The notes under the pieces were generated by a model. It did no database searches. It saw only the letters and a list, made by a program, of their open reading frames with translations, and was not told the DNA's origin. Positions 15,668 to 53,589 of a stretch of 64,000 nt of DNA are shown here, piece after piece; the first letter of the stretch is position 1; the number at the start of each line of letters is the position of its first letter. A program made the position numbers and the translations under genes. The stretch comes from Paraspadella gotoi (taxonomy: Eukaryota > Animalia > Chaetognatha). The stretch lies in contig CM119267.1 of assembly GCA_051294375.1 (NCBI GenBank), positions 24,873,783-24,937,782 on the forward strand, given 5' to 3'.

Positions 15668-17836
15668 TTACGCGTTCGTCTCCGCGTTGACGGCGCCATC
15701 AATCTTCTGACTTCGTTCGAGGTTGTCGTTGACGTCCACGGAGGACGGATCGGTCGAACTCTTCCAAACTCGCTCGTCGCCAGTGGAAGATGGTGAGGCG
15801 TCGGTTGTTTGGCGATCGCCTTCGACAGCGGGGCGATCGCCTTCGGCATCGGGGCGATCGCCTTCGGCATCGGGGCGATCGCCTTCGGCATCGGGGCGAT
15901 CGCCTTCGGCATCGGGGCGATCGCCTTCGGCATCGGGGCGATCACATTCGGCAGCGGGGCGATCACATTCGGCAGCGGGGCGATCACATTCGGCAGCGGG
16001 GCGATCGCCTTCGGTAGGGGCGAGATCGCCTTCGGTAGGGGGGCGATCGTCTTCGTCAACGGGGTGACTACTTTCGTCTTCATCCTTTTTCTTCTCTTCT
16101 TTCTCGTTCAAATTTGATTCTTTTACCTCGTTCAATCCGTCTTCCTTCTTTTTGTCATCGTTAATTATTAAATCTTTGACAATTTTGTCGTTTAATATGG
16201 TATCATTTCCTATCTGATTCATCTTTGACTCATCGACGTCCATCATTAATCTATCATTACCATGGACCGTGTCTTTGTCATCAACCACGGAATGTTCAAC
16301 ATCAGTCTCTCTATCTGAGCAGCCGAAATCTAGTCCGGAATTAGAATCAGATTTCCCTTTGGTAACATGATCATCGCTGATACCCTTTTGGTCATCCTTG
16401 ATGTCAGCCTCGTCATTGTCATCATTGATCCCCTTTTTGTCATCGATGTCAGCCTCCTCTTTGTCATCGCTTCGCTGAGAGTCATTGGCGACGTTTGCAT
16501 CGTCCGCTTCGGATTCTTTTCTCAACCAAATCTCTTTTTCGTTTTCTCCCGACGTTTGGATGCGGTTTACTTCCGGCTTCTCATCGGCCGCTTCTTCATC
16601 GGCCGGTTTATCATCGGCCGCTTCTTCATCGGCCGGTTTATCATCGGCCGAATTTTCATTGGTCGGATTTTCGTTGGCTAGTTTTTCGTCAGCTGGATTT
16701 TCATCAGCCAGCTTTTCATCAGCTGGCTTCTCATCGGCTAGGTTTTTGTCGGATAGCTTTTCTTCAGCTAACTTTTTGTCAGCTGGCTTCTCATCGGCTG
16801 GCATTTTATCAGCTGGCATTTTATCAGCTGGCATTTCCTCGGCTTGCATTTTTTCGACTCGCTTTTCATTTGGTTTTTTGTCAGTATGCTTTTCATCGGC
16901 ATGCTTTTCATTGCCTGGCATTTTGTCAGCTGGCTTTTCATCAGCCAGCTTCTCATCGGCTGGATTTTTGTCAACTGATTTGTCAGCCAGGTTATCGTCG
17001 TCCAGAATATCACTTGACTCGTCAGTTGGCGCAAATTCTGCTGGTTTCTCGTCGACTAACTTCTCCTCAGCTGGTTTTTCATCAGCCGGTTTACCATCGG
17101 CCACAATACAATCGGCTGGGTTCTCATTGGTCGGCTTTTGATTTACCGTCTCCACGTTAACCGATATAAGATTGGCAAGTTTATCGTCAGCCAGACTTTC
17201 TCCATGTTGTGTCGCGATGGCCTGGACCTCAGAGTTTTGATCAACTTCTATGATGGGCTGGTCAAATTCTTTGATTGAATGGTTCCCAGGCTCTTCGGTT
17301 TTGACTACAGAATCAGACAACTTGAAGCCAACATTTTCGTCTTGATTTGATGCCAGATTTTCATCAGGATTTTCCAACGTCTGCTCGTCGACGACTCCTG
17401 AAAGTGGTTCATCTTTCTCATCACCGGCATCTCTAGGTTCGACATTCGCAACTGATTCTTCTGCGAGACCTTTGATTGGCTTCTCTACATCAGAATTCAC
17501 GACAATCATCCCCGGGTCGTCGTTAATAGGCGCAGGTGCCTTTCCGACTGCCTCATGCATTGCAATTTCCACTGGCTTTTTTACCGCGACCTCGACTTCA
17601 ATTGGCCCATTAGCAGCGGCTTCCACGAACTCCACGGGAGCGGCTTTGAGATCTCTGGGCGCCGATTCTTCCACGCGCGGACCATTGACGCCCCCTCGGC
17701 GTTCCTCGTCCTCTTTCCACCTCAGCATGAAGTGGGCGAGGGCGGCAATGGGGTCCGCGGGTCGCTGCATCGCCAACTCGGCTAACGAGTGAGTCAAACA
17801 CTCGGCCACGTGAGTTCTCAGATAGGCGGTGTCCAT
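15668..17836 (-). CDS. DPY30-domain protein (DYDC1/2-like) with a long acidic repetitive tail
   Basis: 722-aa intronless ORF. N-terminus MDTAYLRTHVAECLTHSLAELAMQRPADPIAALAHFMLRW resembles the DYDC Dpy-30 domain; DEKPA pentapeptide and AEGDRPD heptapeptide repeats follow. Confidence 0.8.
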   Translation of the reverse strand: MDTAYLRTHVAECLTHSLAELAMQRPADPIAALAHFMLRWKEDEERRGGVNGPRVEESAPRDLKAAPVEFVEAAANGPIEVEVAVKKPVEIAMHEAVGKAPAPINDDPGMIVVNSDVEKPIKGLAEESVANVEPRDAGDEKDEPLSGVVDEQTLENPDENLASNQDENVGFKLSDSVVKTEEPGNHSIKEFDQPIIEVDQNSEVQAIATQHGESLADDKLANLISVNVETVNQKPTNENPADCIVADGKPADEKPAEEKLVDEKPAEFAPTDESSDILDDDNLADKSVDKNPADEKLADEKPADKMPGNEKHADEKHTDKKPNEKRVEKMQAEEMPADKMPADKMPADEKPADKKLAEEKLSDKNLADEKPADEKLADENPADEKLANENPTNENSADDKPADEEAADDKPADEEAADEKPEVNRIQTSGENEKEIWLRKESEADDANVANDSQRSDDKEEADIDDKKGINDDNDEADIKDDQKGISDDHVTKGKSDSNSGLDFGCSDRETDVEHSVVDDKDTVHGNDRLMMDVDESKMNQIGNDTILNDKIVKDLIINDDKKKEDGLNEVKESNLNEKEEKKKDEDESSHPVDEDDRPPTEGDLAPTEGDRPAAECDRPAAECDRPAAECDRPDAEGDRPDAEGDRPDAEGDRPDAEGDRPDAEGDRPAVEGDRQTTDASPSSTGDERVWKSSTDPSSVDVNDNLERSQKIDGAVNAETNA
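15810..16050. repeat. Coding 21-bp minisatellite (GGGGCGATCGCCTTCGGCATC)n
   Basis: About 11 tandem units encoding (A/T/V)E(G/C)DRP(D/A). Confidence 0.9.
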
Positions 17837-17963
17837 TTTGTTTTTTAGAATTAATGACTAATTGACTAGTTCTCTTTTTCGATTAAAGTTCAAATAAACA
17901 TTGCTAAAAAAAAATTGAAAAACATAAAAATATTAACATATCGTTTTACACCAGGTTTTACAC

Positions 17964-18504: not shown

Positions 18505-21500
18505 CTAGCTAAAATCATGGTTGGTGGAATCGAAATAGACGATGTACTCGGGATAAGCCTGAGAATTCTCAAAGATGATGACCATGTGCTTGTCGTCATT
18601 GGTGCAAGAGTTGTAGAGACCCTTCAACTTGTCATTGGGGTCGATTGGATGGGGACGAGTCAGGCCTCGCTGCCCGATGTGGCTCCGCCCGACGACGACA
18701 CGAGCGCGGATCATGCAAGCCGCGGCGGCCGCCTGCCAATGCAAGAGATCAACGAATCTTTAAAGTATACAAAGTATTACATAGTAGAAAAATCTTAAAA
18801 GCATAAGGATCGTCGCAATCGCATGAGAAAAATCTGGGTTGACGACAAATTTTGATACTAAAAAAAAACAAATTTGAAAAAAGAAAATTAATTTATGAAC
18901 AGAAAGAAAAATAAAAAAATAAATTAAAGAAAGAATAAAAAGAAAAGAAAGAATAAAAAGAAAAGAAAGAATAGAAAGGAAAGAAAGAATAGAAAGGAAA
19001 GAAAGAATAGAAAGGAAGGAAAGAATAGAAAGGAAAGAAAGAATAGAAAGGAAAGAAAGAATAGAAAGGAAAGAAAGAATAGAAAGGAAATAAAGAATAA
19101 GAAGGAAAGAAAGAATAGAAATGAAAGAAAGAAAAATAAAAATAAAGAGAGAGTGATGAGAAGAAAGAACGAAATAAAAACCCGATGTTGCAATAGTAAA
19201 ATGATAACATACACGAATGTGATGCCTAATTTTACGAGTTCAATCCTAATTCAATTTTTTTTTAAATAAAAACGCAGAGAGAGAGAGAGAGAGAGAAGCC
19301 AAATCGTTTTCGGATGAATCAGCAGTGGCAGCAGCAGAGGCAGCCAGAAAAAAAAAAAGAAATCAAAAGGCAGCAGGAGAAAAGAGAGAAAAAGAAAAAA
19401 AGCCCCTTCAGAACCAGCTGCAGACTCGTTTTTTTTTTCTCGATGAATCAGCCTGGGGAAAAAAGAGAGAGCTCCCTATAATTAAAAGAGAAAAGAGAGA
19501 GAGAAGGAGACATAAAAATAAAAGAGAGGAATTTGTTTGTTTTGATAAAACATAAACAAAACATATTTAATAACTGTCCTCACCCAATTTTAACAACCTC
19601 GATGATGAGAAGCTGTATATAAATTTTCAGCTTCATACACCCAAATTTAATCATCAAAAAGGCGATCGATAAGTTGGAACGCCACTTATGCGCAAAAGCG
19701 TTACGAGATCGTCGTAAACGCAAAGCGATTGCGACGATAAAAACGAAGGGGACGTCTGTCCTGCCCTAGGTGCGAGGTATCTCACCGACAACTAGCGCTA
19801 AAGGCTTTGGACCTTTCAGTGATCATACCATATCACACTTTCTGGGGATCGAACCCGGAACTCACAATTGGTAAGCGAGTGATTATCTGCTCAGAGTTCA
19901 AGCCATTGGGACGAGCTCGATGGGCGATTGCTAAACAGGAGGCGAATTTATGATAATTTATAATTTATAATAATTGATATCGCCACAATGCCCACTTTGA
20001 CCACTTCCCAATACAATTTTATTCTGGGTCAAATAATTGGGACCGAACCAACCTGATTTCCATTCGGCGGCCGAGTTGCCTGGGGAACACGGACGACTGG
20101 GATTTTCGACGATAAAAAAAGGTGTAGAAAGGGGAGAATAAAAAAATAAAAGGAGTGAAAAAAATAAATAAAAATATAAAAAAATATAAACAGAATTATG
20201 GATTTAAATGGAAGATCGAAACAAAAGATGGAAAGAATGGAAAAAGGAAAATAATCGGGGATGAAGAAATAAAATGTTAACATGGATTTTGAGTGGAACA
20301 AAGAAACGAATTCTTACCTTTGCTGGCTATATGATTGGGCAACTGTGCCTCGTGTCCGTACTGCCGGTGGATATCGTACTGACTCTTTAAAAAGGCCTGA
20401 AGCTCTTGACCGTAAAACTGGTCACAGTAATGAATGGAATAATCCGCGTGCGAGGAGAAATAGACGCCTTCGCCCCAAAGGCGGGCGTTGCGTCCGATTC
20501 GGAGATCGAAGCCCTCTTGGCCGATGCTGCGGGCAGCGCCCTCGTTCGTGCCGTGCCACATCCACCGCTCGTCCAAGGCGGCTTCGGCGCCCACTTGCTC
20601 TTGAACGATCTTTCGCTGATAGAAGAATCGTTTCCACAGCAACTCGTTCTCCACCCTCTTGACTGCGACGATGGGGACGGGGATGTTCCAGTCCGCCGCC
20701 ACGCGGGCGAACTCTGCTGACTTCGGATCTACGTCGACCAATGCGAAATTCGATTGGCTACCGCCGCTGCTGCTGCTGCCGCCGCCGCAAGCGAGGCGTT
20801 TCCCCTTTCCCTTGTCGTTACCCTTGGATTTCTAGAAGAAAAAACTAGTAAAAATTAGTTCAGTTTGTTTAGATGAAGGGAATTTAATTGAAAAACAAAC
20901 CGATTTAAAAGGGGCGACGACTTTAAGCAAACTCCCCGTCGGTTTTCTCGGCAACCAAGTGTCGGGATAGACGACGTCCACGTCGGAGCCTTTTCCGTCG
21001 TCTTCGTCGTCTCCGGCGACGCCGCCTTCGTCTCCGCTCAGACTCTCCACGATCTCGGCAAAGTAGGTCTCCTGATCTCTCTCGGCGCCGGAAAAGGGTC
21101 GTTTGGCAACGAAGGCAGCCACTTTGAGGATGAGGCGCTCCTCGCCGAACCCTGGGAACATCTCGAGGAAGACGGGCGCGCGGTCGGCGAGGAAAGCGAC
21201 CTCGCCCGGAAGATGCGCGCGCAACTCGGAGGTGAAGTTGTCGCGTCGACGACGAAGTCCGTCGCGGACGAAAGAAAGGATTCGGTCGTAGACGAAAACT
21301 TCGTCCATTCCGTACACCTGGCATTTTTTTAAATTTATTTATATCAACTCAATTAATAAAAAAAAAATTAACTTATTTCTTTCTGTTAATATTCAAAATC
21401 AAGTTTTCAGATTTTCAACTCAATTAACGTCACTACTACTAGCAATAGACTTCCCCCGCTCTATTTCAATTTCCACCCTTCTTTCTTTTCACTCGTCTTT

Positions 21501-22715
21501 CTTCAGGCGACCCACCCCTAATAACCCTCCACGCTTTGTTGTCTGATCGCCTCACCAATCACCATCCCCCTTTCCCCTCAGACACCCACCGTCTCATCGT
21601 CGATGACGTTCTGAACCATGATCAGCAGCTGTCCTCCGCTGATGTCAGGATGATCTTGGACGAGGCGGAGCAGGATTCTGCCGCAGCTGGATTCTGAACC
21701 GTCGAAGACAGGCTCGAAAGCGGGAACCGGAAGAAGGGCGGAGGTGGAGGTGTCGGCATCGAGAGAGCCGGAGGAAGTGGAGCCGTAGCCGGAGCTGGAA
21801 GGCAACGACGAGGCGGTAGCGGACGACGAGGCGGAAGCGGACGACGAGGCGGAAGAGGACGACGAGGCGGAAGCGGACGTCGAAGGAGAAGCGGATGAGA
21901 ATTGGAACAAATAGTCGGGCAGCGGAATGAAATCCGCAGCCGCCGCCGCCGCGGGATCGATGAGCGCGGAATCGCGCAACCAGATCGCGCTAATCGCGAA
22001 GATAGGACATGCGAAAGGTTCAAGGCAAAAGCTGGCGTGGCTAAGGACCCATTTCCAAAAGTAACCGTGCCAGTACCAGTTGTGGCAACCTGGGCGGATT
22101 ATTATTTTTATAAGTTCTTTCAAAAAAAATTCTTTTTTCCTTCTATTACATGGTGACAATTTTACAAGCGCCGGTAGAAATACGATGTCATTTGCAAACC
22201 AGTGGTTATTTCATTGATTTTACAATTTAGTTGAGTAGAAAATACTAAAACTATTTATGTGTTAAAATTTTATATTGATCAGTTAAGATATACCTTGACA
22301 ATGAGTGGAGAAAGTTAGTTTGTAAAATTGAGTTTCATTTTCCAATTCACTTTTTTTAGATTTAATTTTTTTTTCTTACTTTCAGTAAGTTTTCTGAAGA
22401 AATTTGAAATAAAATAATATTATTATTATTATCTTCTGAAAGCCCTTTTAAATCTAAAAAGAATGACGTACTTACAAATACTGTAGTATAAAATTTAACT
22501 GGCCCAGCTTTAATTTAATTAGGATACTCAAAAACGAGACGTCTTTTTAAAAATCAATAGCTGGAGAGTAAATTTATGATATTTATCTAGAGAAAAAACA
22601 AAGTTTTTAATTGTGTTACAACGAATTTAATTAGAGATACGGACATGTTTCGGCTCACATTTCGAGCCTTCATCAGCGTTTGCCATAAGGAAAAATATTT
22701 GTGAAAAAGAAGGGT

Positions 22716-22757
<42 letters not shown>

Positions 22758-22863
22758 GTAAAGGTTTTCCAACAAAGTGGTGAGACAGAATAGTGGTCAG
22801 ATGAGAGAACAGGCTGAAGTTGAGGACAGATTGAGTGAGTTGGGAAAAGAAATGAAATTTGTT

Positions 22864-22901
<38 letters not shown>

Positions 22902-23673
22902 GGACAACAGGGATAAATAAATAAGTATTAAAGATACATTTTGTAATGTACAACAAAAGTAAAAAATTTTGAAAAACTAAATGTCAGTAAGAGTTTAACA
23001 ATTACTAATTTAAATAGTTAGTAAAGGATAGTAACATGAATTATGAAATTTGAAATGTGAAAAAGATAGATTGATAGTTAGGAGGATAAGAAAGTGAAAT
23101 ATAAGGAGAAAGAAAGAGCTCAAAATGAGCTGGCCCCCCTTGTTTTATATGCAAATGAAGGACAGAGACGATGGTGCCAGGTCATTAGCGCGTCATAGGC
23201 TGAGAGGAGAGTGTGGTTGACCAGTGAATGTTGCACTGGGTATCGAACCTGACGGAAAGATTCCCAGAGCCACTCTTATGTCTCTTTGACCTGTTGTGCC
23301 TGCTGGCTGCCCTCTTCTCGCCTGCTGGCGAGGTGGGCGGTTGTCCGTTCTTGCCGCTTTCGTGACAGGAGTGGTGGACTCCTCTCCCTCCTCCTGATAG
23401 CCGTCGTTTTGGGCGGCGCCCAGTCGCCAGAGAGAGGGACTGAGTTGCTTCATTTGAGCTCTTTCTTTCTCCTTATATTTCACTTTCTTATCCTCCTAAC
23501 TATCAATCTATCTTTTTCACATTTCAAATTTCATAATTCATGTTACTATCCTTTAGCTAACTATTAAATTAGATAATTGTTAAACTCTTACTGACATTTA
23601 GTTTTTCAAAATTTTTTACTTTTGTTGTACATTACAAAATGTATCTTTAATACTTATTTATTTATCCCTGTTG

Positions 23674-23713
<40 letters not shown>

Positions 23714-23818
23714 ACAAATTTCATTTCTTTTCACAACTCACTCAATCTGTCCTCAACTTCAGCCTGTTCTCTCATCTGACCACTATTCTGTCTCACCACT
23801 TTGTTGGAAAACCTTTAC

Positions 23819-23863
<45 letters not shown>

Positions 23864-26559
23864 CCTTCTTTTTGCACAAATATTTTCCTTATGGCAAACG
23901 CTGATGAAGGCTCGAAATGTGAGCCGAAACATGTCCGTATCTCTAATTAAATTCGTTGTAACACAATTAAAAACTTTGTTTTTTCTCTAAATCATAACAA
24001 CAACGAAAACGAAAGGTTTATCGCATCATGATATTTATCAAATTGTGATTGGCTATCTTAAATCCTTTTTTCTCAGGATCTTTCATGATACTTATATAAA
24101 ATAATAATATTTTATGTTATACATAATTTAAACAGGTCATATATTTTGAAAAAAGATTATAAATTTTAAATAATTTACTTTTAACACTCTTAATTGAACC
24201 AAGGCTGGGCAGCTCACTTTTTATGTTAAAGCTTTCGTAAGTATATCATTCTCTTCATATTTCTAAGGGCTTTCTGAGGATATTAATATTGTTAATAATT
24301 TAATAAATAATTTGTTTAAAAAGTGCTAAAAGTTAAAAAAAAAATTTGAATTTAAAAACAGTGAGCTGGAAAATGAAACACGATTTTACAAGCCAACTTT
24401 CTCCACTCATTGTCAAGGCATATCGTAACTGATCAATATAAAATTTTAACACATAAATAGTTTTAGTATTTTCTACTCAACTAATTTTTAAAATCAATGA
24501 AATAACCACGGGTTTGCAAATGACAGCATATTTCTACCGGCGCTTGTAAAATTGTCACCATGTACTAAATCTATTTTCAATGCAACTTTTTGAATTAGTT
24601 CATTGGGTTGTTTTATATTGGATATTACCAATTTCATAAAATTCAGCTCATAGTATTGATGCTAGTGCGGAGTACGTACATATAGTATTCCCCGATCTAA
24701 TACTTTGAGGAGTGGCTTTTCATACATTGAAACATTCTTTGAAATATTATACCACTTCATTGATGAGGAAGCCAGGTTCACTGGGAGTGAATAAACAAGT
24801 CTGTAGAAGAGGCTTGATTAAAAGCTGTGGCAAGTGTGATGGAGGCCTTAAACCACCAAAGCCTGTCCAAAGTCAGGACAAGATAGCTTATTTTAAATGG
24901 ATGATAATTTTTATATGTTGTACCAATTTCATATTAATAAATATTTTAAAACTTCAGTGCAACAACCAATGAACTAATTAAAAAGTTGCATTGAAAATAG
25001 ATTTAGTACATGAAAATTTTACAAGCGCCGGTAGAAATATGCTGTCATTTGCAACCCGTGGTTATTTCATTGATTTTAAAAATTAGTTGAGTAGAAAATA
25101 CTAAAACTATTTATGTGTTAAATTTTATATTGATCAGTTACGATATGCCTTGACAATAGTGGAGAAAGTTGGCTTGTAAAATCGTGTTTCATTTTTCCAG
25201 CTCACTGTTTTTAAATTCAATTTTTTTAAAAAACTTTTTAGCACTTTTTAAACAAATTATTTATTAAATTATTAACAATATTAATATCCTCAGAGAAGCG
25301 CGCTGTAGAATCTCTCTCGTTGGGGGNNNNNNNNNNNNNNNNNNNNNNNNNNNNNNNNNNNNNNNNNNNNNNNNNNNNNNNNNNNNNNNNNNNNNNNNNN
25401 NNNNNNNNNNNNNNAATTATCCATCCATTTAATAAATAAGCTATCTTGTCCCTGTCTTTGAACAGGCTTTGGTGGTTTAAGGCCTCCATCACACTTGCAA
25501 GATAATAACATAACAGGTTTCTGCATATAACAAATATATAACAAATCACAAGAACATTTTTTATAAATTTTCTTTTTTAAGAACGGATTCTTATAGAACT
25601 TGAAAAGTTAAATGAAAGTTAGTACTACAATTTTTTAAAATTTTGACAATAAATTGGTTAAAAATAGAAAAAACCATAAAAAATCATCATCATCATCATT
25701 GGCTGAATTTTATGGTTTTTTAAATTTCTTATCAGTAAAACAAAAAAATTTAAAAAGTTGTATAAATAACCTTTATCTAACTTTTAAAGCTTTACCAGAA
25801 TCTATTAAAAAAATTGAAAAATTAAAAAAAAAATTTAAACTTTATATAGTAATAAAATAATCTTTAAATGCTTCCGTGCACTAATCAATAAGATAAAGTT
25901 TTAAAATTATTTTTATTTTCATATTCTTTAACATTCGCTTAACCATTATTTATTTGAGAGAACTTCAAGTTTTCAACCTGTTCCGTCCTAATAAGTATAT
26001 ATTATAATTTTTAATATGTAAATGAAGTAATAAACTGACCGAGACAGTCAGGATCGTGACGGAAGTAAGAAAGAAATTTGAGACACTTGGGATGAAATTG
26101 GCAGCGAAGGGCGATCTCGTCGATTCCCTCGTGAAAGGCGATGATCTCCGCTCGTTCCCGAATCAACTTCTTGATGAAGTCGACTTCGCAGGAGGAGAAT
26201 TTTAATCGAAACCAATCGCAACTTCTTTCGTCGACGTCGAACTTGAGCTGTTTGCCCGACGCGTTGCCCGACGGCTCAGCGTCGTCGTCGGGTTTTCGTT
26301 TGAACGTCGGGACAACGTAGTTTGCGTTACTCGGTCCGGCATCAATGGCGTTGCTAGTTCCCGCGCTGCTCTCGTATAAAATGACGCATTCGTCGTCATC
26401 ATCGTTGCCCTTTATCTTATAAAGATTATGAAGATTAACGTCGTCGTTGACGGGGACCTGACCGTCTTTTTTATCGTCATTAATATCGTCTCTGGGTTCA
26501 GACTTCTTTGATTCAGAAACATTGAACTCGACTTTGTCGTCGTCGTCGTCAGCGGACAT
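18505..26559 (-). CDS. PARP-family (ARTD) protein, probable mono-ADP-ribosyltransferase
   Basis: Exons 26040-26559, 21590-22089, 20901-21317, 20318-20831, 20053-20096 and 18505-18732 join in phase. Motifs: VKRVENELLW, MWHGT, WGEGVYFS, YSIHYC, ARVVVG, MVIIFENSQAYPEYIVYF. Confidence 0.85.
18791..19742 (-). mobile_element. Full-length HINE-like element in the last PARP intron
   Basis: Both termini present (subterminal IR ATCGTCGCAATCGC / GCGATTGCGACGAT), internal 18-bp array, A-run flanks, no TSD. Confidence 0.75.
19746..19950 (-). mobile_element. Truncated LTR of the twister-LTR family
   Basis: The reverse strand matches the 55768-56040 LTR (GCTCGTCCCAATGGCTT...GGGTTCGATCCC...TCACTGAAAGGTCCAAAGCCTTT); the ribozyme core is partly deleted. 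Confidence 0.7.
22632..22687 (-). ncRNA. Minimal type I hammerhead ribozyme (PLE-type)
   Basis: Reverse complement of the 23890-23945 copy. Confidence 0.85.
23890..23945 (+). ncRNA. Minimal type I hammerhead ribozyme (PLE-type)
   Basis: ACG-CTGATGA-A-GGCTC-gaaatgt-GAGCC-GAAAC-AT-GTC-CGT; palindromic stem III (ACATGT); predicted cut after C23935. Confidence 0.85.
24277..25292. repeat. Long inverted repeat (MITE-like or assembly fold-back); a related arm lies at ~22149-22560
   Basis: ~24277-24612 is the reverse complement of ~24960-25292; the repeat abuts the N gap at 25327-25414. Confidence 0.6.
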
Positions 26560-32800: not shown

Positions 32801-35800
32801 GATTTTGTTCATGACTGGAAAACCAACAGAGTAACGAAATTAATTGTTTAATTCTCCCCTTCTAAACTATCCCATACCGTGTTTTAACTTCTTACCTAGA
32901 ATTTTTTAACAACCAGATTGAAAAACAAATCTTTTAAAAATGTGCTTACCCATTTAACTTAACAATTTTGTTATTTACCCATTTAAAAAAAATTATTGAA
33001 AACGGAATGTTTACTTATAAATAAGAATTATTTTTTTGTGATTACTGATGACTATAATGTATTTCTCGATATATTAGCTCTAACACATCAATGATTACGT
33101 ATTGTTATGCTGAATGACCTTTCCTCTTAACGAGAAATCTGAATCTGTTCTCAGAATTAAAAAAAAAAAAACATTTTGAAATTTTGACATTATATAAGGG
33201 TAGTACTATATACAAAATAAGCTGACTGGGCTACTACATTTGTAAAAAAAGAAAAATAACTACAAATTAGTATTCACTAATATGATAGTTTTCAAGATAT
33301 AATTTAGATACCTCACTCGAGAGCCAATATTATTTTATTTTTTTATATATTTTTATGCCGGTCCCTGGAGGATGATATCATATTCACTTGCAAGAAACCG
33401 TTTTTAAAATTCCTAACGAACTGCGGTGGAGTAGTATCTTCACGAAACGGACTGCGGGAGTGATACGGGTCTGAGCGTCCACGAGCGCCATGCCACCAGG
33501 AAGTATGCGTCAAATATGATTTCTTATGTCACGAGTCTCCGAGAAGAATCTATTAATAAAACTATTCCTTTACGGAGTTTAATCGTTTCTTAGATTATCT
33601 GAACGGCGCGATATAGGTTGATATGAGATCTTATTTAAGAGGAAGAGAGAGAAAACGTTGATTGCTTGATCTTTCACAGTCAGTAATACTCATGAAATGT
33701 GGTAAGACGGATGGGAGAGATAAATCTCTGAAACAGTGATATGGTCTCGATCGAGGGACACAGGAAAGTGATCTATGTTCTCTAAGGCGATTAAGTTTTA
33801 TTTTAAAAGTTTTAAGGTATGTGTACCGAATAGGATAAATTGAGATACTCCCGCTTTGCTGAAATTTTTATTTAACAAAGATTTGTACTGCGTAGTTCAA
33901 ATCCTTAGTTCTCTCACGGTAAAAAAAGTTATTTTCTTAAATAACTTTGGAAAGAAAAGAGGTAGGAAAGTGGGTGAGGTATTAAATTAAAGCCCTAATC
34001 ATGGGACACCTCTTGAAATAGTTTTATTAAATTTTATCCATAAATCTTTACACAGCTTTTATTTAAATCGGAGTTAAAAGTATAACCGTTTTTTGCATTA
34101 AAAATTTCAATGAAGGCATGTGAAATTTTTTTTCTTCTTTCGTAATTTGAAAAAGGAAAGACTAAATTACATTTTGATTACATTAAATTTGCTCTACTCT
34201 ATAAATTTGCTTGTATTTTTTAGTTAAAGTAAAAAACAAGCAAAAATTTATGAAGTAGCTGGATAAAATGTTTTTTTAAATATGAAAAATGATAAATCAC
34301 AAAATATTTTCAGATTGATTATAACAGTCTGGACGTCTACCTTCTTGTCTGTGAAAAAAAAATTGTCATTTTTCATTATCTTCAACTGCAAACAAAAAGC
34401 TTGACACGCTGCTTGTTTATCATAATAAAATTTTAAAAAATTACATAGCTGGTGACATATTTGACAAAGCAAGACATCATTGGTTTATTTGTATTGATAA
34501 TTTTCTTTTAAATATAACAACCTTTATACAAGGAATTTAATTCTTTTACTTATCATCCGTTTAAATTAAGAAAAAAAATTTCGCGGAATAGCCCATTGGA
34601 AAGGGTTCATTGACTGACTTAATGATCGAATTTTTTAGGTTTCTTTACTGCCCCCATTTCACAAGACATAAAAGGTCATGATTATCATGTCAGTATGTCC
34701 AGATTATCTGTACCCTTTCTGCAACCTGCATTCTGAATTTTCTTTTTTTCCCTTTCAAATGTATTAAATAAAAAAATTATTTGAGAGAACGATTGGCGTG
34801 GAGGATGCCATTGGTAAACCTTAGTTACCCCACTTCCCGATCGAATTTTTAAACGAGGTTTTTTTTCCATCTATTCGAGACATAACACTAACTATTGGTA
34901 CTATTAATTTTTTATTTTTTTCATGAAATTTTGCGTAATCAGAGAAACGTTTAGCGTGTCAAAAAAATATGGAAAAAAAAGAGAAAAACGTTCTGACAAA
35001 TTTAAAAATTTATGGAGGAATCTGATATAATTGCTAAATTTCAATTCCAAACTTTCACTTCACCCTAAGCACCACATTAAACAAAGTCAATAGCTAATCA
35101 AGAAAGAGCAACATAACAACATAACACCTGGATCGGCGAGGACAAAGAGAGGTGGCGCTCTAGAATTGTTTTTATAGCGCCACTCGTCAGGAATCTCTTC
35201 TTTGAGGTAAACGGTGACGTTGGGTGAGATGCGACTCATGTTCGCTCGCAACTCCCGAGGGTCGACGCCGGGTTTGGGGTAAATTAACTTACCCGGCGAA
35301 GTTCCGAAGGCGTCGAACAAGGCAGAGTCTCTGGATTGGATGGGAAAAAAGGCTTTGAAATGCTAGTGTCAAGGCTGTCTTGTCTTGCGGATCAAAGCAG
35401 ATCGAGTACTATTCTATCTTTCTATTCTTTGTAATTTTTAAGACATTTTTTAAAATTTTTTAAGAGATTTCTATGATATTTCTCGATTTCCTTAAAATTT
35501 CTTTGAGATTTCTTTATAATCTTCCGCTGATCTCGCTGTGATCCCTTTGCAATGTCTTGGCGATTTCTTAGGGCCATCTGTGCTCTCTTTCTCACCTTTC
35601 TTCACAAATTAAGAAAGAGATGTAGTGTGGCGGTATATTCACACCGCCTCACGTCCACCATCCTTCAGCCAAATCCATTGGCTCAGAGGGGGAACACACC
35701 ATCCCAGGCGTAGTGTTCCATCCACAGTCCTAACAACTTCCCTCTGCGTTGGCAAGGCGAGACCGTCCTAGGGTAACCGCGCCAGAGACTGGAGGCGTCA

Positions 35801-37803
35801 CTGAGGGTCGGAAGCCCCCAAAGCCAACAGTGAGATGCCCCATCCCAATGGGCATCACAGGCAACCCGACTGTTGCCATAAGTGGTGAGCCCTACTATCA
35901 AACACGCAACCTTCTCAGGGTACGCTACCACAAACGCCTATGCCCTGCCGACTACGGGTACGCTACAACAAATGCCTATGCCCCTGGGGTACGCTACGAC
36001 AAACGCCTATGCCCCCACAACTCGCGCTCTCTCTCTCTCTCTCTCCCACTATGGTAACAGTCTTGTCAGACACCTCTCAGGCTTGAGGAACCTGGGTGAT
36101 GTCTTGACCCGGGGATCCTGTGGCGGTATATTCACACCGCCTCATGTCCACCATCCTTCAGCCAAATCCATTGAGGGGGAACACACCATCCCAGGCGTAG
36201 TGTTCCATCCACAGTCCTAACGACTTCCCTCTGCGTTGGAAAAGCGAGACCGTCCTAGGGTAACCGCGCCAGTGACTGGAGGCGTCACTGAGGGTCGGAA
36301 GCCCGCAAAGCCAACAGTGAGATGCCCCCATCCCAATGGGCATCACAGGCAACCCGGCTGTTGCCATAGTAGCATCTTTTTACCTATTACCTTGACAGCA
36401 TTATCAAACAATTATTTTCAAGTGAAAGAAAACGACTCACGCAAATTCAGCAAGATCGAAGACGACCGACACGTTGGCCATCCCGTGATCTGCGACGATG
36501 ATGACGTTCGTCCTCGCGGCCAATCCTGTCTCCCGCAGACTTCGGTCAAGATAACCCAACGCATCGTCGCTGATTCGGACGGCCGCGTCTATTTGAGACG
36601 ACTCGGGGCCAAAAAAGTGGCCGACGTGGTCAGCTCCTGGGAAGTAACTGCGAATAAAAGGGGTTCAATTTTAAGGGACAAGTCTATAAAAATAAATCTC
36701 GAGGTGTGGACGTTACATCATCCCGAAGTTGATGGGACGATCCTCGGCCAAAAACCAACTGAGCATCAAATCGATTCTGTCTTCTGCAGGCATCGTTTGG
36801 TTGTAAGGAATGTATTTGAAAATGACGCCTAAAAACGAGAAAGATTTTAGTAGCGCCAAAAGTAATCTCGTTTATCCTACTTTAGTTTTTAATGCTTATA
36901 ACTCGAGTAATACTGGATCATTTTGATTAATTTGTTAATAATAATTATATTTATTGTTTTCCCCTCGGCGGTCGAGTCGGCACCTTTGTCCAAAAAGTCG
37001 ACGCCGTCACCAGGCCAAAAGACAGAGCCGCTGCGACACTCGGCGCAGAGCCGCTGGTTGAGCAGCCAAATGGGGAAAGCGGCGTCGTTTTGGCGCCAGA
37101 ATCTCGTTTCGCTGTTGTTGAGGAAGAAGGGCGCCCCCAATTCGGCGTCGAAGAAGCTGTTGGCTGACGGAAGCGGAGAGTCTTCACAGAGTAGCTCAGA
37201 ACTATTTTCACAGTTTTCGCTGGACGAGCAATTGGGTTCGGACCAAAGAGAAGTCAAGTTTACAAACTTAAACATTAAAGACTACGACATTCTGAGGCAA
37301 ACTTAGAAGCCATTACATAATTAGCATAGCTCATATAAATATCCTGCGTTTCTACAGTTTGGCAAATTGCCGAATTCGTTCACATTTTTATCACCAACGC
37401 GAGAGAGTTCGCCTTCGCTTCCTCACCGATGATCCCGTGTGATTCGGCGAAAAGCCCGGAAGCGATGGTGAAGTGACTCGTGAAAGTTTTGGGGATGAAG
37501 ACCGGCTCCAGTCCCTTCGACGCTACGACTCCCGCATCGCGGAAAGCTTCGAAGGCGGGGAGAGATCCCTTTAGTCGCTCCAAGTAATCGTATCTGGGAG
37601 AAGGAAGAAGTTTTAGAATATTTTCTCGATCCCTCGCTCTCGCTCTCTATCTCTCTCTCTCTCTCTCGCACACGGACACACCTCAACCCGTCAAAAGAGA
37701 TGACGAGAAGAAGATTAGGTTTTTTCTTCGAAGGAAGACATTTTGAATCCACCGCAGCAACGATCACGAAGAATAAAATGAGATTCTTCTTCCTCATCGT
37801 CAT
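26893..37803 (-). CDS. Ectonucleotide pyrophosphatase/phosphodiesterase (ENPP4/5/6/7-like), membrane-anchored
   Basis: Signal peptide then LVISFDGLR; PKTFTSH (catalytic Thr); GLFAESHGII; PIW; FWPG; YFPGADHVGHFFGP; IIVADHGM; YLKEEIP; GDHGY; FLARGPAF; DVYPLM; hydrophobic C-terminus. Exons ~37682-37803, 37426-37593, ~36962-37170, ~36717-36828, ~36441-36647, ~35127-35331, 26893-27287. Confidence 0.9.
27331..27700. repeat. Dispersed AT-rich repeat; reverse copy at ~44440-44800
   Basis: TAGAGTGATGTGAAAAT...TAGTGGGCACCAGTG matches the reverse complement near 44670-44800. Confidence 0.65.
28423..30134. mobile_element. 1.7-kb TIR element present in only one of two duplicated ENPP-intron copies
   Basis: Ends CATCTCGAACAAAACCTCGTACG / CGTACGAGGTTTGTTTGAGATG; the empty site is seen at ~32865-32885. 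Confidence 0.7.
29431..29688. mobile_element. Small MITE with internal satellite-like units
   Basis: TIR AAACAAGTTTGAGCAAAC(A)ATGTCGGATCTGC; the interior has AAAATGATACAAGTTG-type units. Confidence 0.7.
35748..35828 (+). ncRNA. Twister ribozyme, type P5 (LTR1 of copy A)
   Basis: P5 GTTGGC/GCCAAC; P2' GCGA; GA; T1' CCG; P1 TCC-TA-GGG; TAA; P2 CCGC; GC; P3; P4 AGGG-TCGGAAGC-CCCC. Predicted cut U35774|A35775. Confidence 0.8.
36235..36315 (+). ncRNA. Twister ribozyme, type P5 (LTR2 of copy A)
   Basis: Same layout, with perfect P3 CAGTGAC/GTCACTG. Predicted cut U36261|A36262. Confidence 0.8.
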
Positions 37804-42700: not shown

Positions 42701-45700
42701 TACTTTCTGTATATCCCTATCCTATATCAACAATAACAAAGGCTTAAAACTCGCTCTTATCCTCTTCGACAAAGTTACGACTCCGGTTTTTTTTCATTTT
42801 GACGCGGAAAAAGAGAAATCGAATAAAAACGAAGGAAAAATCATGAACGTGGACAAGAAACGAGGAAGCAGTTACCAGTGAGTAAAAGGGAACGTATTCT
42901 AATGATTTCGGAAAGAGGGGAAAGGGGTTTGGGAAAAGAGAAACTTTATTTCAATGACGAAAAAAACTTTTTTTCTCCTCCAGGCGGCAGAAGGGAAGGC
43001 CTTCCTCCGCGGACAAACGCGACCGTAAACATTCCCGCTCTAAATCACGTTAGTTGGATTGAGTGATGGGGGCGGGGGTGGGAGTTTATTTAAAGAATGA
43101 TACAACAACAATAACAAAAACTATCTCCTCCTTCCCACTCCTACAGCAAGAAGCCGCTCTCGCTCCCATGGCCACGGCGACGGGCGTTCCCGATCAAGAA
43201 GCTCTAAGAACGAATCGCGCTCCCGCTCGAGGAGCAAGTCCTCCGGATCGGGTGAGAAAAGGAACGAGGATAAAGATAATTTTATAGCGGCTTCGGCTTT
43301 GGTTTCCAACCTCGACCATTCTTAATAATTTCAGAACATCACAGCCGTAACCATGGTCACGGAGATAAGCGTTCTCACTCAAGCTCACGCAGCAACTCTT
43401 CGGAAGACTCTGGTGTGGCGTGATAGGTTGAGGGGGAGTAGGTTTGAGAAATTATGACAAATATGATAAATTTGGATCGCTCGCTCAGGATCCGCGGAGA
43501 AATCCACGAAGAAGATCGACAAATTGGCCAAAGCCAACAAAAACATCAATGCTAAATCGAGCGGCGCCAGCAGCAGCGTTAAGAAGCGCCCAAGGTCGCT
43601 CGCGGCTCGTTCCAAGTCGCGGCCCGGCCGCGGCCGCCCCAAGTCGGCCGCGGGGCGTCGCAAGTCGGTCGGGCGCCAGGCAGGCGGCAAGAAGCGTGCG
43701 CGTTCCGCTTCTAAGTCTGGGATGAAGAATCGCGGGAAATCGGGCGTCAAACGTCCCAAATCTGGATCTAGAGCTACGGCGGGCAAGAAGCGTCGCTAAT
43801 AGGGTGCCAAAGCCACTCATTTTCAAATGGGGGTCGAGTGACGAAAACCAAAGGACAGAAAAGTGAAATAATGAAGGGAAAAAATTAATATCAATCATAA
43901 ATTTTTACTTTTGATAATCTAATCGTATGATTTTAACACTGAAACCTTACTGTAGTCGCGAAACTTAATAAAATTACTTCATAAAGCGTTAATGTTCAAA
44001 AAAAAATTTCAGGAGAGAAATTATTTTTTTAAATTTTTAATGTTTACGACTGATGATACTCATATAGACTCACCATTAGGGTGAGAGGGATTTTGGAAAA
44101 TGTTATTCGTTTTCAAGATATTTAGATTTAAAGCCAAAATCTCATTATTCTTTTTTTTTTCCTATGAAGAAAATTGAATTTGGAAAATCCCTCTCATAGA
44201 ATTGGGGACCTTCACCTCAAGTAAAATTATGTTAAATTTCTTACAAATCCGCTTCGCCGTTTGGGCTGCAACTCTTCTGATAGGTTTCTTTTATTTTATA
44301 TAGTAATATAAAATTCGAAAAAACACCAACGGGTTTGAAGAAATAATAAAGTGAATACATTCTCGGAATTTTCGGGACCTCTACTTTCCAAATACTATCT
44401 TTGTGTTACCCTATTTATAACTTTTGGCGAGTGATCCCAGGCCTCAAGTAGGTTAAAATTATAAAAAACTATATTTTTAAGTTCGAAATTAAAAATTAAC
44501 ATTTTAAATATAGTTTTTTACATTAACCAACTTAATGAAAGAATTTTTAAAAAAGAATTATACTTTCTTATATTAACTTTTTGCAATAAATCCAAATCCG
44601 ATCTTAAAATTAAAAAATTTGCAATTTGAAATTTTAGCTTATTATATACTTATTACTATATATAAATATAGGTCACTGGTGCCCACTAATGTATAAAATT
44701 AAAAAATAAATTTACCAAAGTATTTTTATTGGTTTTTATTTTCATGTTTTATATGCTAAATTTTAATTTTCTAAAATTTTATCATTTTCACATCACTCTA
44801 CTACTCACCATCCATGATGTCCTGCTGCATCTCGGCCTTGTCGACGAACCAATATCCTTTCCCGTCCTCCTCCCCTTCTCGCATCTCTCGACTCGTCGTC
44901 GGAATCGTCGTCCCATAACTCGTCCCGTCTTGGTTGATCAATTTGTTTTTGAGGCTTCGACGTCCGACCCCCTTAGAAAGAGGGGGTCAGAGACGAGGGG
45001 AAAGACGGAGAAAGAGAGACGCGAGGCAAGAGGGAGAGATTGAGTAAGGAGGGATGGAGAGACGGTGGTAGATTAAAGGGGGACAGACCGAGATTTACGA
45101 AAATTTCACATAGCCTCTTCAATTAAACTATAATAGATCTTCCCCCTAAGCCTTGGCCCTCCTTACCTGCGCTCCGATAAGAACGAGCGTCTTACGCTTG
45201 AAGGGCGGCATCTTGGCCACCTCCTCATAGACGCTGATGTCGTTGGGGTCGAACTCTGCGCTTCGTTTGGCCACGAAAAGCGTCTTCTTCTTTTTCTTAG
45301 TGAGGATCGTACCGCAGGCCACGCTCGAGGTCGTGTAGTCGAAGTCGGGCTTGACGAAGGCCATGCGGTTCTCCTGGAAAAGACAAGCGCGAATATTCGA
45401 TGAGATTGGATTCCCTCTATGACCTTCATTGCAACCGAGGCAGCAAATGATCCACCACCTGAACGGTTTGGGACGGGATGAGACCCGTTTGAGCTTCGGA
45501 GGGAAGGATATGCGAGGATTCCACGATTTTCGCCTGCCACCACGACGGGTCCTCTTGATTTAATACCTATAGATATTAATCGATTATTGAACAAGATTCT
45601 TATTTTTGGAATTTAAAATTTCCGCATCAATCTTAACAAAATCGACGAACCTGAAGAATATCGCCCTCCCGGAACTGGACGCCTGCCTCCTTGCAGGGTA

Positions 45701-48745: not shown

Positions 48746-51700
48746 TCAATCCGCCCCGGCCGCTGTCGTATCATCCGACTCGTCTCCTTCTTCCTGTTTG
48801 TAAACAGGGGGCTCGGTGATGGTGGAGCCGCTCCGCACCGCCTCCTCGCGGCGCCGGCGCCGCCTTTCCCGCCATTTTCGGCATCTGTTGTTCCAGTGGA
48901 TGATCATGTAGATGCTGACGATGAAGAGGAGGCCACCGGTAGCGCCGACTATGATGAAGACGCGGATGAGAAGGGGGACTTTGACGAAGTGAACGCGGAT
49001 GGGAAATCGAAAGGTGAAGTCACACGACGGGAATCTGAGAATAATAAAAAAAAAACAAAAAAAATTTTTTTTAAATTCGTAAACCCCCCCCCAAAAAAAA
49101 AGAAAGAGGGGAAAATTTAAAAAAAAATGATGTGGCGGTCTATTCACACCACCTCACGTCCACCATTGTTCAGCCAAATCCATTGGCTCAGAGGGGGAAC
49201 ACAACATCCCAGCTGTAGTGATCCATCCATAGTCCTAATGACTTCCCCTCTGCGTTGGCAAAGCGAGACCGTCCTAGGTAACCGCGCCAGTGACTGGATG
49301 TGTCACTGAGGGTTGGAAGCCCCAAAGCCAACAGTGAGATGCCCCATCCCAATGGGCATCACAGGCAACCCGGCTGTTGCCATAAGTGGTGAGCCCTACT
49401 ATCGAATACGCAACCTTCTCAGGGTACGCTACGACAAATGCCTATGCCCTGCCGACTTCGGGTATGCTACGACAAACGACTATGCCCCCACCACTCGCAC
49501 TCTCTCTCTCTCTTCCACTATGGTAACAGTCTTGTCAGACACCTCTCAGGCTTGAGGAATTTGAGTGATGTCTTGGCCCGGGGATTCTGTGGCAGTATAT
49601 TCACACCGCCTCATGTCCACCATTGTTCAGCCAAATCCATTGGCTCAGAGGGGGAACCCACCATCCCAAGTTTTTATTGTTCCATCCACAGTGCTAACGA
49701 CTTCCCTCTGCGTTGGCAAAGCGAGACCGTCCTAGGGTAACCGCGCCAGTGACTGGATGCGTCACTGAGGGTCGGAAGCCCCCAAAGCCAAGAGTGAAAT
49801 GCCCCATCCCAATGGGTATCACAGGCAACCCGGCTGTTGCCATAATGGCATAAATTAAATGAAAGGAAGAAAAAAAACCTTTCCGCGATCCCAATGTTGG
49901 AGAATTCCATGAGAAAGAAATAGACGGGCGGAATGAACCACTTGAGCGGAAGGCGATTGTAGCAGTCGAGCGAAGAGACTTCGCAACCAAATTGAAAGTA
50001 ATTCTCTAAACTTCCGTCGTAGATCTTTTGATTATGAACTGTGCACTCGCGATCTTTTTGGTCGGGGAACAGCGGGATCTCGCTGAGACGAAAAAAGAAT
50101 AGAGAGAGATTCGCAACCAAATCAATAGTGAAGAGGAGAGGGGGCGAGAGAGACCTGCTTGAAGAGTCGGACTCGGGAACGGCGAGAATGGCCTCGTCAG
50201 GTTTGAAGAGATCCTTCTGGTGAGCGGAGGCGCGGCACAAAGGGTTCGACTTCATCACGACGTCGGGGGTCCAATACTCTAGCTCTTTCCAATTCCTTCC
50301 GCCGCCGATGATGTTCAAAGTGAATTTGTCGTCGTACAATCGAGTCCAGCCGGTCGACTGCGAGTCGGGCCAAAGGAACGACAAACGCACACACTCTTTC
50401 TTTCTCTCTTTAACAGTCCCACCTGTTGTTCAAAATAGAACTGAGGCTGAAAGGATTCCAGACTGTGCAGACAGATGGGAACGCCGGCGGGGTTGTAGCC
50501 GATCGGAGGTCCCTCGTCGTCGATGTCGATGCAGTCCCAGTGCGAAGATTTTAAACGAGTTCTATTAGTAATATTTAAAACCTTATTGGTTAAAATTTTA
50601 AAAAAACATGGGGCTTATTGTACATCAAATAGGACCCCAGATCCCTCTGTTAGACAGGGATGAATTCCAAATCGCGCGGATGGCTTCGGTTCAATGGTTA
50701 CGATCACAATAAGGAAAAAAAAATACAGATGAAGAATAACAAAAGGAAGGCACTTTTCCTAATTTTTCCGGACCTGTTTATCCGCACACTGATATCCGGC
50801 GGGCACCCGATGTGGACCGTCGTCTTGGCAACGCCAAGGAACGGAGACTCTGTCTCGGAAAGGCGTTCGCCACGGAGCGGACAGCGGAATCCGGCTTCGG
50901 TCAAGCGAAGAGAAACTTCCACAGGTACGTTGGCCACACCAGGCGCCTGTTGGGGAATGATTGACCGAGCCAGATCGCTGGCCGTCGGAAAAAAGATACA
51001 AAATTTACTCGAATTTCCGGGCAAAGATCATTTTCATCTCGCGCCAACTGCAAACCTCGTCCTTATCGACACCAAAAAGTCGATAGTCAAGTTCTCTAGG
51101 TGCACGACTTTCTGGACGGTGAACTGCAGCAGCGTCGCGTCGGAGGTGCTGACGATTAGATCCAAATCCCTGAGACGATCTTTGAGTTTCCGTCGAGTCT
51201 CGATCCGCAAAGACTTAAACCCCTCCTGGGTCGAATTTATCGCATTCTCCGACAAAGGCGGGAGGTTCAAGTCCTGTGAGTGGTCGTGGACGTTAAGTCA
51301 TCAAAAGTAGTCAACCGCCAAAGTTTAACCGCTGAAACCTTTTGCAGGATGTCGTCGAGAAAGCTGTTGATATTGTCGAGGACGGCGTGGACTTTAATGC
51401 TGATAACGGACTCAATGACCCAGATGTTTTCGGGAAAGGCGGCCAGCGTCTTGGTGAGCTTGGGCCGGTTCAGATAAAAAACGTCCGTGTAAAAAAGGCT
51501 CGTTTCTGCTTGTACTTTTTTGTACTGCAGGAGACGTCGGTCGATGGATGAAATAGAATATTCATAATTCGATTATTAGTGAGAGTCAATTTATGTTAAT
51601 TAAATCGAAGACTGTTAAATTATCCACCCGCAAAAAATTGGAGATGTTCTTAGCGAGATCGAAGTAGCCTCTTCCGCTCATGTGAAAGAGCGCCATTCCC

Positions 51701-53552
51701 TTTTGGTCGCCGAAGTACTTTGTCCAGAACTTTTCATCGGTGTCCATCGGGAGGTTCTGATCCTTGAGAACCTCGAGAGGCAGGGAAGCCACCTTCAAAA
51801 TTAATTTGAGGAGGATACAGTCGAGCTTCTCCCACCTCTTCCTTTTCTATCGCTTATTCTTTCAATTCCCTCGCCTTTCCTTTCTCTCACCGTCCAATAA
51901 GCCAACATATCAGCTTCGGACAAATAACCCGGCGGATCGCGCCACGCCTCTGGCGAGTGAAACGTCCAATGGTTATTACTGAAAAAGCGAAAAAAATAGA
52001 AAAACCGCGATATAAAAAGCCTACCATACTGTATATATGAGAAAGGACAACCGAGTGGCAACGGCGTAAGGCTCTATCTCGTAGAAAACGCGAGCATACG
52101 GGCAAAAGCCCCGGTTGTAAGCGGTGGGAGGCAGAGAAGGGGGCGGGGAAGAGGGGTTCTCCTCCTCCTCCGCAGCCAACGACTCCGCCTCCTCGTTGGC
52201 GAAAAAGGCGGCTAAGTTTTCCGTCGTCCACATATCGTCGAGAGGAAATTCCTCGTGATGAATTCCACCTGAATGGAGAAGCTCCAAAGTTTAATCCCAG
52301 CATTATCATATCACCATCAATTCGCTATCATATCACTATCATGTCAATAAATCATCATAAAACGACCTCCGCCATCGCAGAGAAGAAAGACTCGGCCGAA
52401 ATCATCCTGAGTCAGGCCAACGGGTTTGTCGCAATCGAAGGATCTCTTCAACCTTTCGGTGTCGATAAGGGAGAGGGGGAATTAATCCTTATTGTTATCC
52501 CACCCGGCCACGCCTACCGATCTCGACTTGGCATTATTCACCGAATCAGCGTCAAAAAAATGGGATCGGACAGATCGGTCCAGAGATGAAGATCAGTCAA
52601 AGGATCCGCGACCAAGACGAAGAATCCCGAGGCGGCTTTGGCCAGCCAACAAAAAACGCCCTTTTTAAATTGGTCATGGGAAATTAATTTTGACTCATAA
52701 TAAAAAATCTTAAAAGCATAAGGATCGTCGCAATTTTGATACTAAAAAAAATTAAATTTGAGAAAAAAAAATTAATTCTATTTTGCGATTGTCAATTAAA
52801 AAAATAATAAAGTACCGAGGAAAATTAAAGTTACAGTTTCTGAAAAAAAAAAACTTTTTCATTGTCAAATAAACTGATCAGCAGACGCAGCCCTGAGAAA
52901 AAAAATCTTAAAAGCATAAGGATCGTCGCAATTGCATAGAAATCGTGGATTGACGACAAATTTTGATACTAAAAAAAATCAATTTTGAAAAAAAAAAAAA
53001 AATTATAAACAGAAAGAAAAAGAAGAAAAGAATAAATAAAGAATAGAAAGGAAAGAAAGAATAGAAAAAAAAGAATAGAAAGGAAAGAAAGAATAGAAAG
53101 GAAAGAAAGGAAAGAAAGAATAGAAAGGAAAGAAAGGAAAGAAAAGAATAGAAAGGAAAGAAAGAATAGAAAGGAAGAAAGAATAGAAAGGAAAGGAAAG
53201 AAAGAATAGAAAGGGGGAAAAAGAAAATTAATTTATAAACAGAAAGAAAAATTCTATTTTGCGATTGTCAATTTACAGTTCTGAAAAAAAAAAAAAAACA
53301 AAGTAAAATAACTTATTTTCGAGTTTAACTTTAAGCACGCATAAGCAAGCAGTTTGATCGAATGCGACCTCTCTAAACACTGTCAGCATTCCCAGACAAA
53401 AGACAAAGTGAAACTTGAATCAGACTGACGAAGTGAAGTAAAGACTAAAGTGAAATAAAAACCCGATGTTACTATAGCAAAATGATAACATGCACGAATG
53501 CGATGCCTAATTTTACGAGTTCAATCCCAATTCAATTTTTTTTTAAATAAAA

Positions 53553-53589
<37 letters not shown>

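Follow-up and report, generated by a model that had tools for sequence, protein, structure and literature searches.

Can a retroelement of less than 1 kb, lying in an animal genome and coding for nothing, carry a self-cleaving ribozyme in each of its long terminal repeats (LTRs), and what would the ribozyme do there? The question was raised by a 64,000-nt stretch of the chaetognath Paraspadella gotoi genome (contig CM119267.1, positions 24,873,783 to 24,937,782; referred to hereafter as the window), in which an initial annotation had recognized a 743-bp non-coding element, here called E1 (positions 35626-36368 of the window), and had proposed that a type-P5 twister ribozyme in each of its LTRs excises an RNA that becomes circular. 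Our analysis indicates that the type-P5 twister is present in both LTRs as a structure under selection, while its cleavage between U and A is a prediction. As to its role, we give roughly even credence to the view that this non-coding miniature LTR family, equipped with tRNA-like boxes and a twister, propagates in the manner of a retrozyme via self-excised circular RNA.

The anatomy ascribed to E1 was borne out in full: the two LTRs of about 250 bp with the ends TGTGGC...GCCATA, the target-site duplication (TSD) GTAG, and a sequence resembling a primer-binding site (PBS) are all there (cf. Table 1). Being shorter than 1 kb, with two LTRs, no coding capacity, and dispersed copies with TSDs, E1 is a terminal-repeat retrotransposon in miniature (TRIM), and it lies antisense inside an intron of a nucleotide-pyrophosphatase gene. 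A second complete copy (E2), 87.5% identical to E1, was also found where it had been reported, but its TSD is imperfect, matching at three of four positions (ATGA/ATGG). According to BLAST, the LTR pairs are 94.5% (E1) and 90.7% (E2) identical, and both elements are aged copies rather than active masters. In four alignment columns the two LTRs of an element agree with each other but not with those of the other element, a single column showing the opposite pattern; this is what one expects if both LTRs of an element arose from a single template when it inserted.

The twister was searched for with a type-P5 descriptor in which only the core nucleotides (numbered according to PMC5113685) were fixed, whereas elsewhere pairing was required and any helix sequence was allowed. 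Six sites in the window matched, compared with a mean of 0.22 and a maximum of 2 in 60 block-wise dinucleotide shuffles, and all six fall in LTRs of this family, i.e. the four LTRs of E1 and E2 (the E subfamily) and two further LTRs, S1 and S2, the twisters of which came up blind. Each of the six copies keeps the conserved core, i.e. U-A-A at the cleavage site, G-A ahead of T1', the GC/GC of T2, and a U and an A in the P4 loop. All parts of the fold listed in the initial annotation are present in the four E LTRs, though P1 turned out to be merely 2 bp long, with a loop of 3 to 4 nt. The order is permuted, with an open P5 and a closed P1; P5 comprises 5 to 6 bp in E and S1 and is imperfect in S2, and the E subfamily is without the fourth P4 pair that S1 and S2 have. 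There is one P3 mismatch in the 5' twister of E1, and a G.G mismatch in P4 together with one P5 mismatch in the 3' twister. In both LTRs the fold lies on the strand of the PBS (sense), and the predicted double cuts would release monomers of 487 nt from E1 and 459 nt from E2, the very sizes that had been proposed. No hammerhead was matched by Rfam in the window.

Left unaided, RNAalifold recovered P5, P2, P3, and a 7-bp hairpin downstream of the twister, which is a candidate packaging or ligation signal. Constrained folding revealed no consistent difference between 5' and 3' LTR contexts and in several contexts did not favor the twister helices, but this comparison is uninformative, the model being nested only, with no pseudoknot energy, and S1 having been given a wrong P5 register.

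Selection on the fold is indicated by two kinds of variation. Firstly, in the six-row twister alignment, 95% of the cells are paired (T1, 100%; P2, 83%; P4, 94%; T2 is invariant) and 6 of 21 pairs are altered on both sides (2/3 in T1, 2/4 in P2, 1/2 in P1, and 1/3 in P4), a number that none of 500 shuffles equaled and with no such pair in any of six slid controls; these rows represent three independent lineages only, and relatedness can beat shuffles and inflates some of the measures. Because the compensatory changes separate subfamilies with common LTR ends, selection acted while the twister was already in the LTR. Secondly, four sequencing runs that cover one E2 twister yielded nine variant rows, distributed over eight positions. 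In the segment 49731-49769, where variants are detectable and which does not include the A of the C.A pair discussed below, E-subfamily variants of at least 1% affect 6 of the 12 positions in loops and 2 of the 27 that are paired or belong to the core (Fisher p 0.006), most of them reaching 1% in one run only. Within-family variants thus avoid the stems.

A C.A pair at the first P2 position had been flagged as a caveat. The pair does occur in the E subfamily, but the concern is a minor one, as the corresponding mutant of the rice twister Osa-1-4, G44A, retains a relative activity of 0.97 (PMC5113685; the value was obtained by counting along a matrix row). P1, P2, and P4 of Osa-1-4 tolerate mismatches, P1 is dispensable, and the 2-h end-point assay behind the matrix masks rate losses (PMC5113685).

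The element is widely dispersed. In a DNA sequencing run, 9,295 contigs align to a 1.2-kb stretch around E1, and contigs depart from the element at the outer border of the 5' LTR (28 + 106), at the border between this LTR and the internal region (42 + 69), and at 36368 (85). The flanks of the departing contigs are unrelated, with an agreement of just 0.42-0.45, and such sharp departures into unrelated flanks define the exact ends of the element and place the family at well over a hundred loci. Summed contig depth is about 1e5-8e5 on E1 and 27-58 on its flanks, which is not a copy number, and the contig junctions at E1 in this run cannot tell circles from an LTR repeat. Two runs with other organism labels contained 2 and 1 low-depth contigs matching the element, from which no claim on distribution is drawn, while scans of metagenome contigs, viral contigs, and GTDB genomes for the twister or element pattern found nothing. 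Two observations on a further run, putatively of RNA, were set aside: its cover of the neighboring host exon, which appears to begin at the splice donor at 36441 (bin depth 31.6/51.8), as it comes from one study and involves an uncovered part, and a rise of the putative-RNA/DNA depth ratio from 0.04-0.06 to 0.11 in the part of the LTR downstream of the cut, as contig depth cannot rank parts of the element. In this run 560 contigs lie on the E1 stretch, and the DNA run continues past 36441.

Three more family members that had gone unnoticed in the initial annotation are present in the window. S1 is a solo LTR of a diverged subfamily (68-72% identity to the E LTRs) with clear A and B boxes and a fully paired twister. 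S2 represents a third subfamily; its left end is degenerate, no TSD was found at 55760-56040, and P2, T1, and P4 of its twister are fully paired, P5 being imperfect. Identity to the E LTRs ranges over 67-74% for S1 and S2 together, and the two share 78% with one another. The decayed S3 was detected by a model built from the six copies (E 0.0024). S1 sits inside an AT-rich array of short tandem units adjoining a repeat with a 19-nt period (57889-58900; whole region, 57889-59400), and S2 may be sense-oriented within an intron of a plus-strand gene, to judge from a putative gene model with a GT donor near 55343.

A tRNA-like segment, overlooked in the initial annotation, lies upstream of the twister in every LTR and apparently provides the element with an RNA polymerase III (Pol III) promoter. 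According to the definitions of PMC10886601 (A box, TRGCY...YGG; B box, GGTTC), both TRGCY and GGTTC are found in S1, S2, and S3. In the E subfamily the A box still reads TRGCY, although it is deleted in the 3' LTR of E1. ARAGORN called no tRNA in the window, and the sense strand of E1 has no run of four T, which is compatible with Pol III transcription and not significant. Of the 13 positions of the PBS candidate, 11 agree with the honeybee tRNA-Trp PBS depicted in Fig. S2 of PMC10886601. An inverted near-copy of the junction between LTR end and PBS (35868-35885) occurs at 36046-36062, E2 having the same layout. In both predicted circles this copy pairs with the PBS and partly hides it, so that it could possibly be a priming switch.

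These features may be combined into the following cycle. Pol III, starting from the tRNA-like boxes, or host read-through would transcribe across the element to a flanking T-run. Both twisters would then cut at the same LTR position, giving a tRNA-like leader of about 100 nt and a monomer of 460-490 nt that would comprise the PBS, the internal region, the polypurine tract (PPT), and exactly one LTR equivalent, with no terminal redundancy. The ends produced by a twister are a 5'-OH and a cyclic phosphate, a pair that RtcB is able to ligate, and the monomer would probably be closed by this enzyme. A tRNA, possibly tRNA-Trp, would prime reverse transcription by a Ty3/Gypsy element acting in trans, travel round the circle would replace strand transfer, and the Ty3/Gypsy integrase would produce the 4-bp TSD. 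That the monomer is excised, circularized by RtcB, and reverse-transcribed by a Gypsy element is what we infer from the layout. Two published observations are in line with such a scheme: (i) the monomer of plant retrozymes carries no repeat that could serve strand transfer, from which Cervera 2016 (PMC4918200) argued that the circle is the likely template and (ii) animal Helenus elements have their PBS in common with Gypsy only and make 4-bp TSDs (PMC10886601).

Several findings, beside the relatedness of the aligned copies, weigh against this scheme. The initial annotation had named the Rfam type-P5 covariance model as a check, and this check was negative. At the gathering score the window gave no Rfam match, partial twister-P1 matches in a relaxed search scored 16.1, 22.5, and 16.6 bits, the cut-off being 67.2, and twister-P5 was not among the matches listed, from which two same-clan overlaps are missing. 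The P1-type reading suggested by these alignments was rejected, since it fails on P2 and T1. The 3' twister of E1, with C.A in P2 and G.G in P4, resembles the Osa-1-4 double mutant G44A + C21G, the relative activity of which is 0.09 (PMC5113685), and by this analogy it is probably crippled. The predicted circles are weakly structured, 53% and 57% of their nucleotides being paired, and their stability does not clearly exceed that of shuffles (z -1.9 and -0.7; 60 shuffles each, of decayed copies), whereas plant retrozyme circles are about 70% paired, with the ribozyme masked (PMC4918200). The B box of the E subfamily departs from GGTTC, its PPT is weak, consisting of 5 purines only, and neither a helper element nor an open reading frame resembling reverse transcriptase was found within the 64 kb.

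The rival that survives best, which we nevertheless consider rather unlikely, keeps the twister active in a linear cycle. Here the ribozyme would free the 5' end of the tRNA-like leader or of host read-through RNA and would set a 3' end; the template would be RNA that escaped the 3' cut, RNA given a repeat by a co-packaged partner, or a monomer bridged through end-to-end template jumping without ligation. The weak structure of the predicted circles would fit such a cycle, in Perere-3/RTE elements a twister located at the 5' end serves for trimming (PMC8501958, PMC7761336), and the Pol III cycle of Cassandra, which involves an 18-nt repeat, is linear (PMC10886601). However, at insertion the two LTRs do not differ, so that most linear templates would be lost to a ribozyme that cleaves efficiently, and yet the fold is under selection; the lack of a consistent folding difference between 5' and 3' LTRs points weakly in the same direction, given the nested model. 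As selection has maintained the twister fold in LTRs that are identical to each other, it is likely the cleaved RNA that is productive, and we prefer propagation through a self-excised circle.

According to a second rival, a tRNA-headed, twister-bearing cassette resembling a short interspersed element (SINE) was inserted in an ancestral TRIM LTR and the ribozyme is a passenger, an origin to which we assign quite a low probability. In the E subfamily at least, its twister would by now have little activity or could be dispensed with, and the family would move as an ordinary Helenus-type TRIM. TRIMp3 is proposed to have arisen through the insertion of a SINE (PMC10886601), Schistosoma SINEs combining a promoter with a ribozyme exist, and the E-subfamily fold has a C.A in P2, a 2-bp P1, and no fourth P4 pair. 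Against such a history stand the compensatory changes between subfamilies that share LTR ends, the avoidance of stems by within-family variants, and the tolerance of G44A by Osa-1-4. Finally, that there is no twister at all, only chance or unrelated hairpins in an ordinary TRIM LTR, might be argued from the lack of an Rfam family at threshold and from nested-only folding that does not favor twister helices in several contexts, but it is very improbable in view of a core complete in six of six copies, a pseudoknot T1 covarying at two of three pairs, and six descriptor matches against 0.22 in shuffles.

Table 1. Positions of the elements of the twister-bearing TRIM family and of their parts within the window.
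Feature	Position	Strand	Remarks
E1, left TSD GTAG	35622-35625	+	right copy 36369-36372; from the sequence
E1, 5' LTR, 255 bp	35626-35880	+	loose ends of contigs pile at 35625/35626 and 35880/35881
E1, tRNA-like segment of 5' LTR	35679-35723	+	A-box-like 35679-35689; degenerate B-box/T-arm-like hairpin ~35715-35723
E1, type-P5 twister fold of 5' LTR	35748-35828	+	predicted cut 35774/35775
E1, 7-bp hairpin downstream of twister	35834-35856	+	conserved; compensatory changes at 2/7 pairs (S1 and S2)
E1, internal region, non-coding, 238 bp	35881-36118	+	three short hairpin repeats, (CT)n tract
E1, PBS candidate TGGTGAGCCC	35883-35895	+	starts TGG, 2 nt behind 5' LTR
E1, PPT candidate, weak	36111-36115	+	5 purines, 3 nt before 3' LTR
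E1, 3' LTR, 250 bp	36119-36368	+	twister 36235-36315, predicted cut 36261/36262
E2, second complete element, 714 bp	49131-49844	+	LTRs 49131-49384 and 49588-49844
E2, predicted twister cuts	49279/49280 and 49738/49739	+	descriptor search
S1, solo LTR, diverged subfamily	58936-59192	-	perfect 4-bp TSD ATAC; twister A+1 at 59041
S2, single LTR, third subfamily	55760-56040	+	clear A/B boxes; twister A+1 at 55933
S3, decayed S2-like LTR	19745-19987	-	A and B boxes retained; twister has lost its front half by deletion; 3' end absent

The window also holds other features. Another dispersed repeat family has at least 5 copies (7289-7915, 18776-19743, 53440-54500, 60600-61468, and 63299-64000) with internal duplications of 66-73 nt, and a long inverted repeat at 22144-24567, with arms at about 22144-23124 and 23453-24567 that are 90-96% complementary, resembles a foldback element or a miniature inverted-repeat transposable element. 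The reverse strand encodes a 729-aa Dpy-30-motif protein with acidic repeats (15668-17857), a PARP catalytic-domain exon (20277-20831), and, as it appears by eye, a Lys/Arg/Ser-rich protein similar to protamine or H1 (43385-43904). A PDZ exon of PALS2/MPP type is 63-75% identical to the 120 proteins listed, the named ones coming from several animal phyla and none being close, which marks the host as an animal.

How, then, does the family relate to known elements? LTR retrozymes have been described primarily from plants, with type III hammerheads, whereas animal retrozymes are non-LTR hammerhead repeats, and twisters have been placed at the 5' end of RTE long interspersed elements (LINEs) (PMC7761336, PMC5680766, PMC6765202, PMC8501958, PMC13725137, and bioRxiv 10.64898/2026.07.22.740005). 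The initial annotation knew of no animal LTR retrozyme using a twister, and none turned up at the level of titles and abstracts: in the retrozyme, twister, and TRIM literature covered, which was mostly non-subscription, with few subscription journals and with Roth 2014 and Repbase/Dfam outside it, no title or abstract placed a twister in LTRs. Within this literature, the ribozyme-in-LTR layout was found only in plant elements with a hammerhead.

The likeness to plant LTR retrozymes (PMC4918200) is considerable: both are non-coding, with a sense-strand ribozyme in each of two LTRs, a PBS and a PPT (candidates in our case), 4-bp TSDs, solo LTRs, and a double cut, predicted in our case, that gives a monomer free of repeats. 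In contrast to them, the family resides in an animal and has a type-P5 twister in place of the type III hammerhead, tRNA-like Pol III boxes in the LTR, and a PBS that is not that of tRNA-Met; it is also smaller (LTR of about 255 vs. 350 bp, monomer of 460-490 vs. 600-1000 nt), and its predicted circles are far less paired. With a different ribozyme and a weak circle fold, the family stands outside the LTR retrozymes in the strict sense. Animal non-LTR retrozymes and the Sm-alpha SINEs of Schistosoma (PMC7761336, PMC6765202, bioRxiv 10.64898/2026.07.22.740005) have small ribozyme-delimited monomers too, and Sm-alpha shares the order of promoter and then ribozyme with the LTRs described here; unlike our family, they are tandem repeats with type I hammerheads, linked to Penelope-like elements and devoid of LTR, PBS, and PPT. 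The Perere-3/RTE variants (PMC8501958) likewise tie a twister to an animal retrotransposon, but there a single ribozyme occupies the 5' end, the element is a LINE that codes for protein, and paired copies in LTRs are lacking.

To our knowledge, almost no role has been assigned to eukaryotic twisters. Given a selected twister in the LTRs of a TRIM that is abundant in an animal, the design with a ribozyme in the LTR must have arisen a further time, using another catalyst and, it appears, a tRNA-derived promoter. Slightly short of even confidence, we propose that the family is the first animal LTR retrozyme and the first one driven by a twister, i.e. an old, Pol III-promoted lineage of miniature LTR elements with several subfamilies, which excises itself and circularizes by means of its twisters, represents an independent origin of the retrozyme strategy, and is an endogenous animal source of viroid-like circles bearing twisters. 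Two questions thereby become open to direct test, namely, whether a circular template can replace strand transfer in an LTR element and whether animal genomes shed viroid-like circles carrying twisters. Since Rfam thresholds miss twisters of this kind, other TRIM libraries are worth rescanning with the descriptor.

Also among the closest systems known are Helenus and TRIMp3 (Kojima 2024, PMC10886601), which are TRIMs of less than 1 kb with tRNA-derived A and B boxes in the LTR and, in animals, 4-bp TSDs, a Gypsy-type PBS, and solo LTRs. The available text of that paper never mentions a twister, the word ribozyme occurring only inside a reference title; the LTR-end and PBS strings of our family have 0 occurrences in its supplement, where line breaks can hide matches, and a non-exhaustive inspection by eye of 28 of the 49 loop-motif places in the Helenus LTRs of the supplement showed no twister core. 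In most of the animal Helenus LTRs inspected, the tRNA part is near the 3' end and followed by a short tail, whereas here about 150 nt with the twister and the hairpin come after it. The family is at best a divergent Helenus. Judging from its layout, it looks like a Helenus/TRIMp3-like TRIM crossed with a retrozyme, having the architecture of the latter and, apparently, the promotion of the former.

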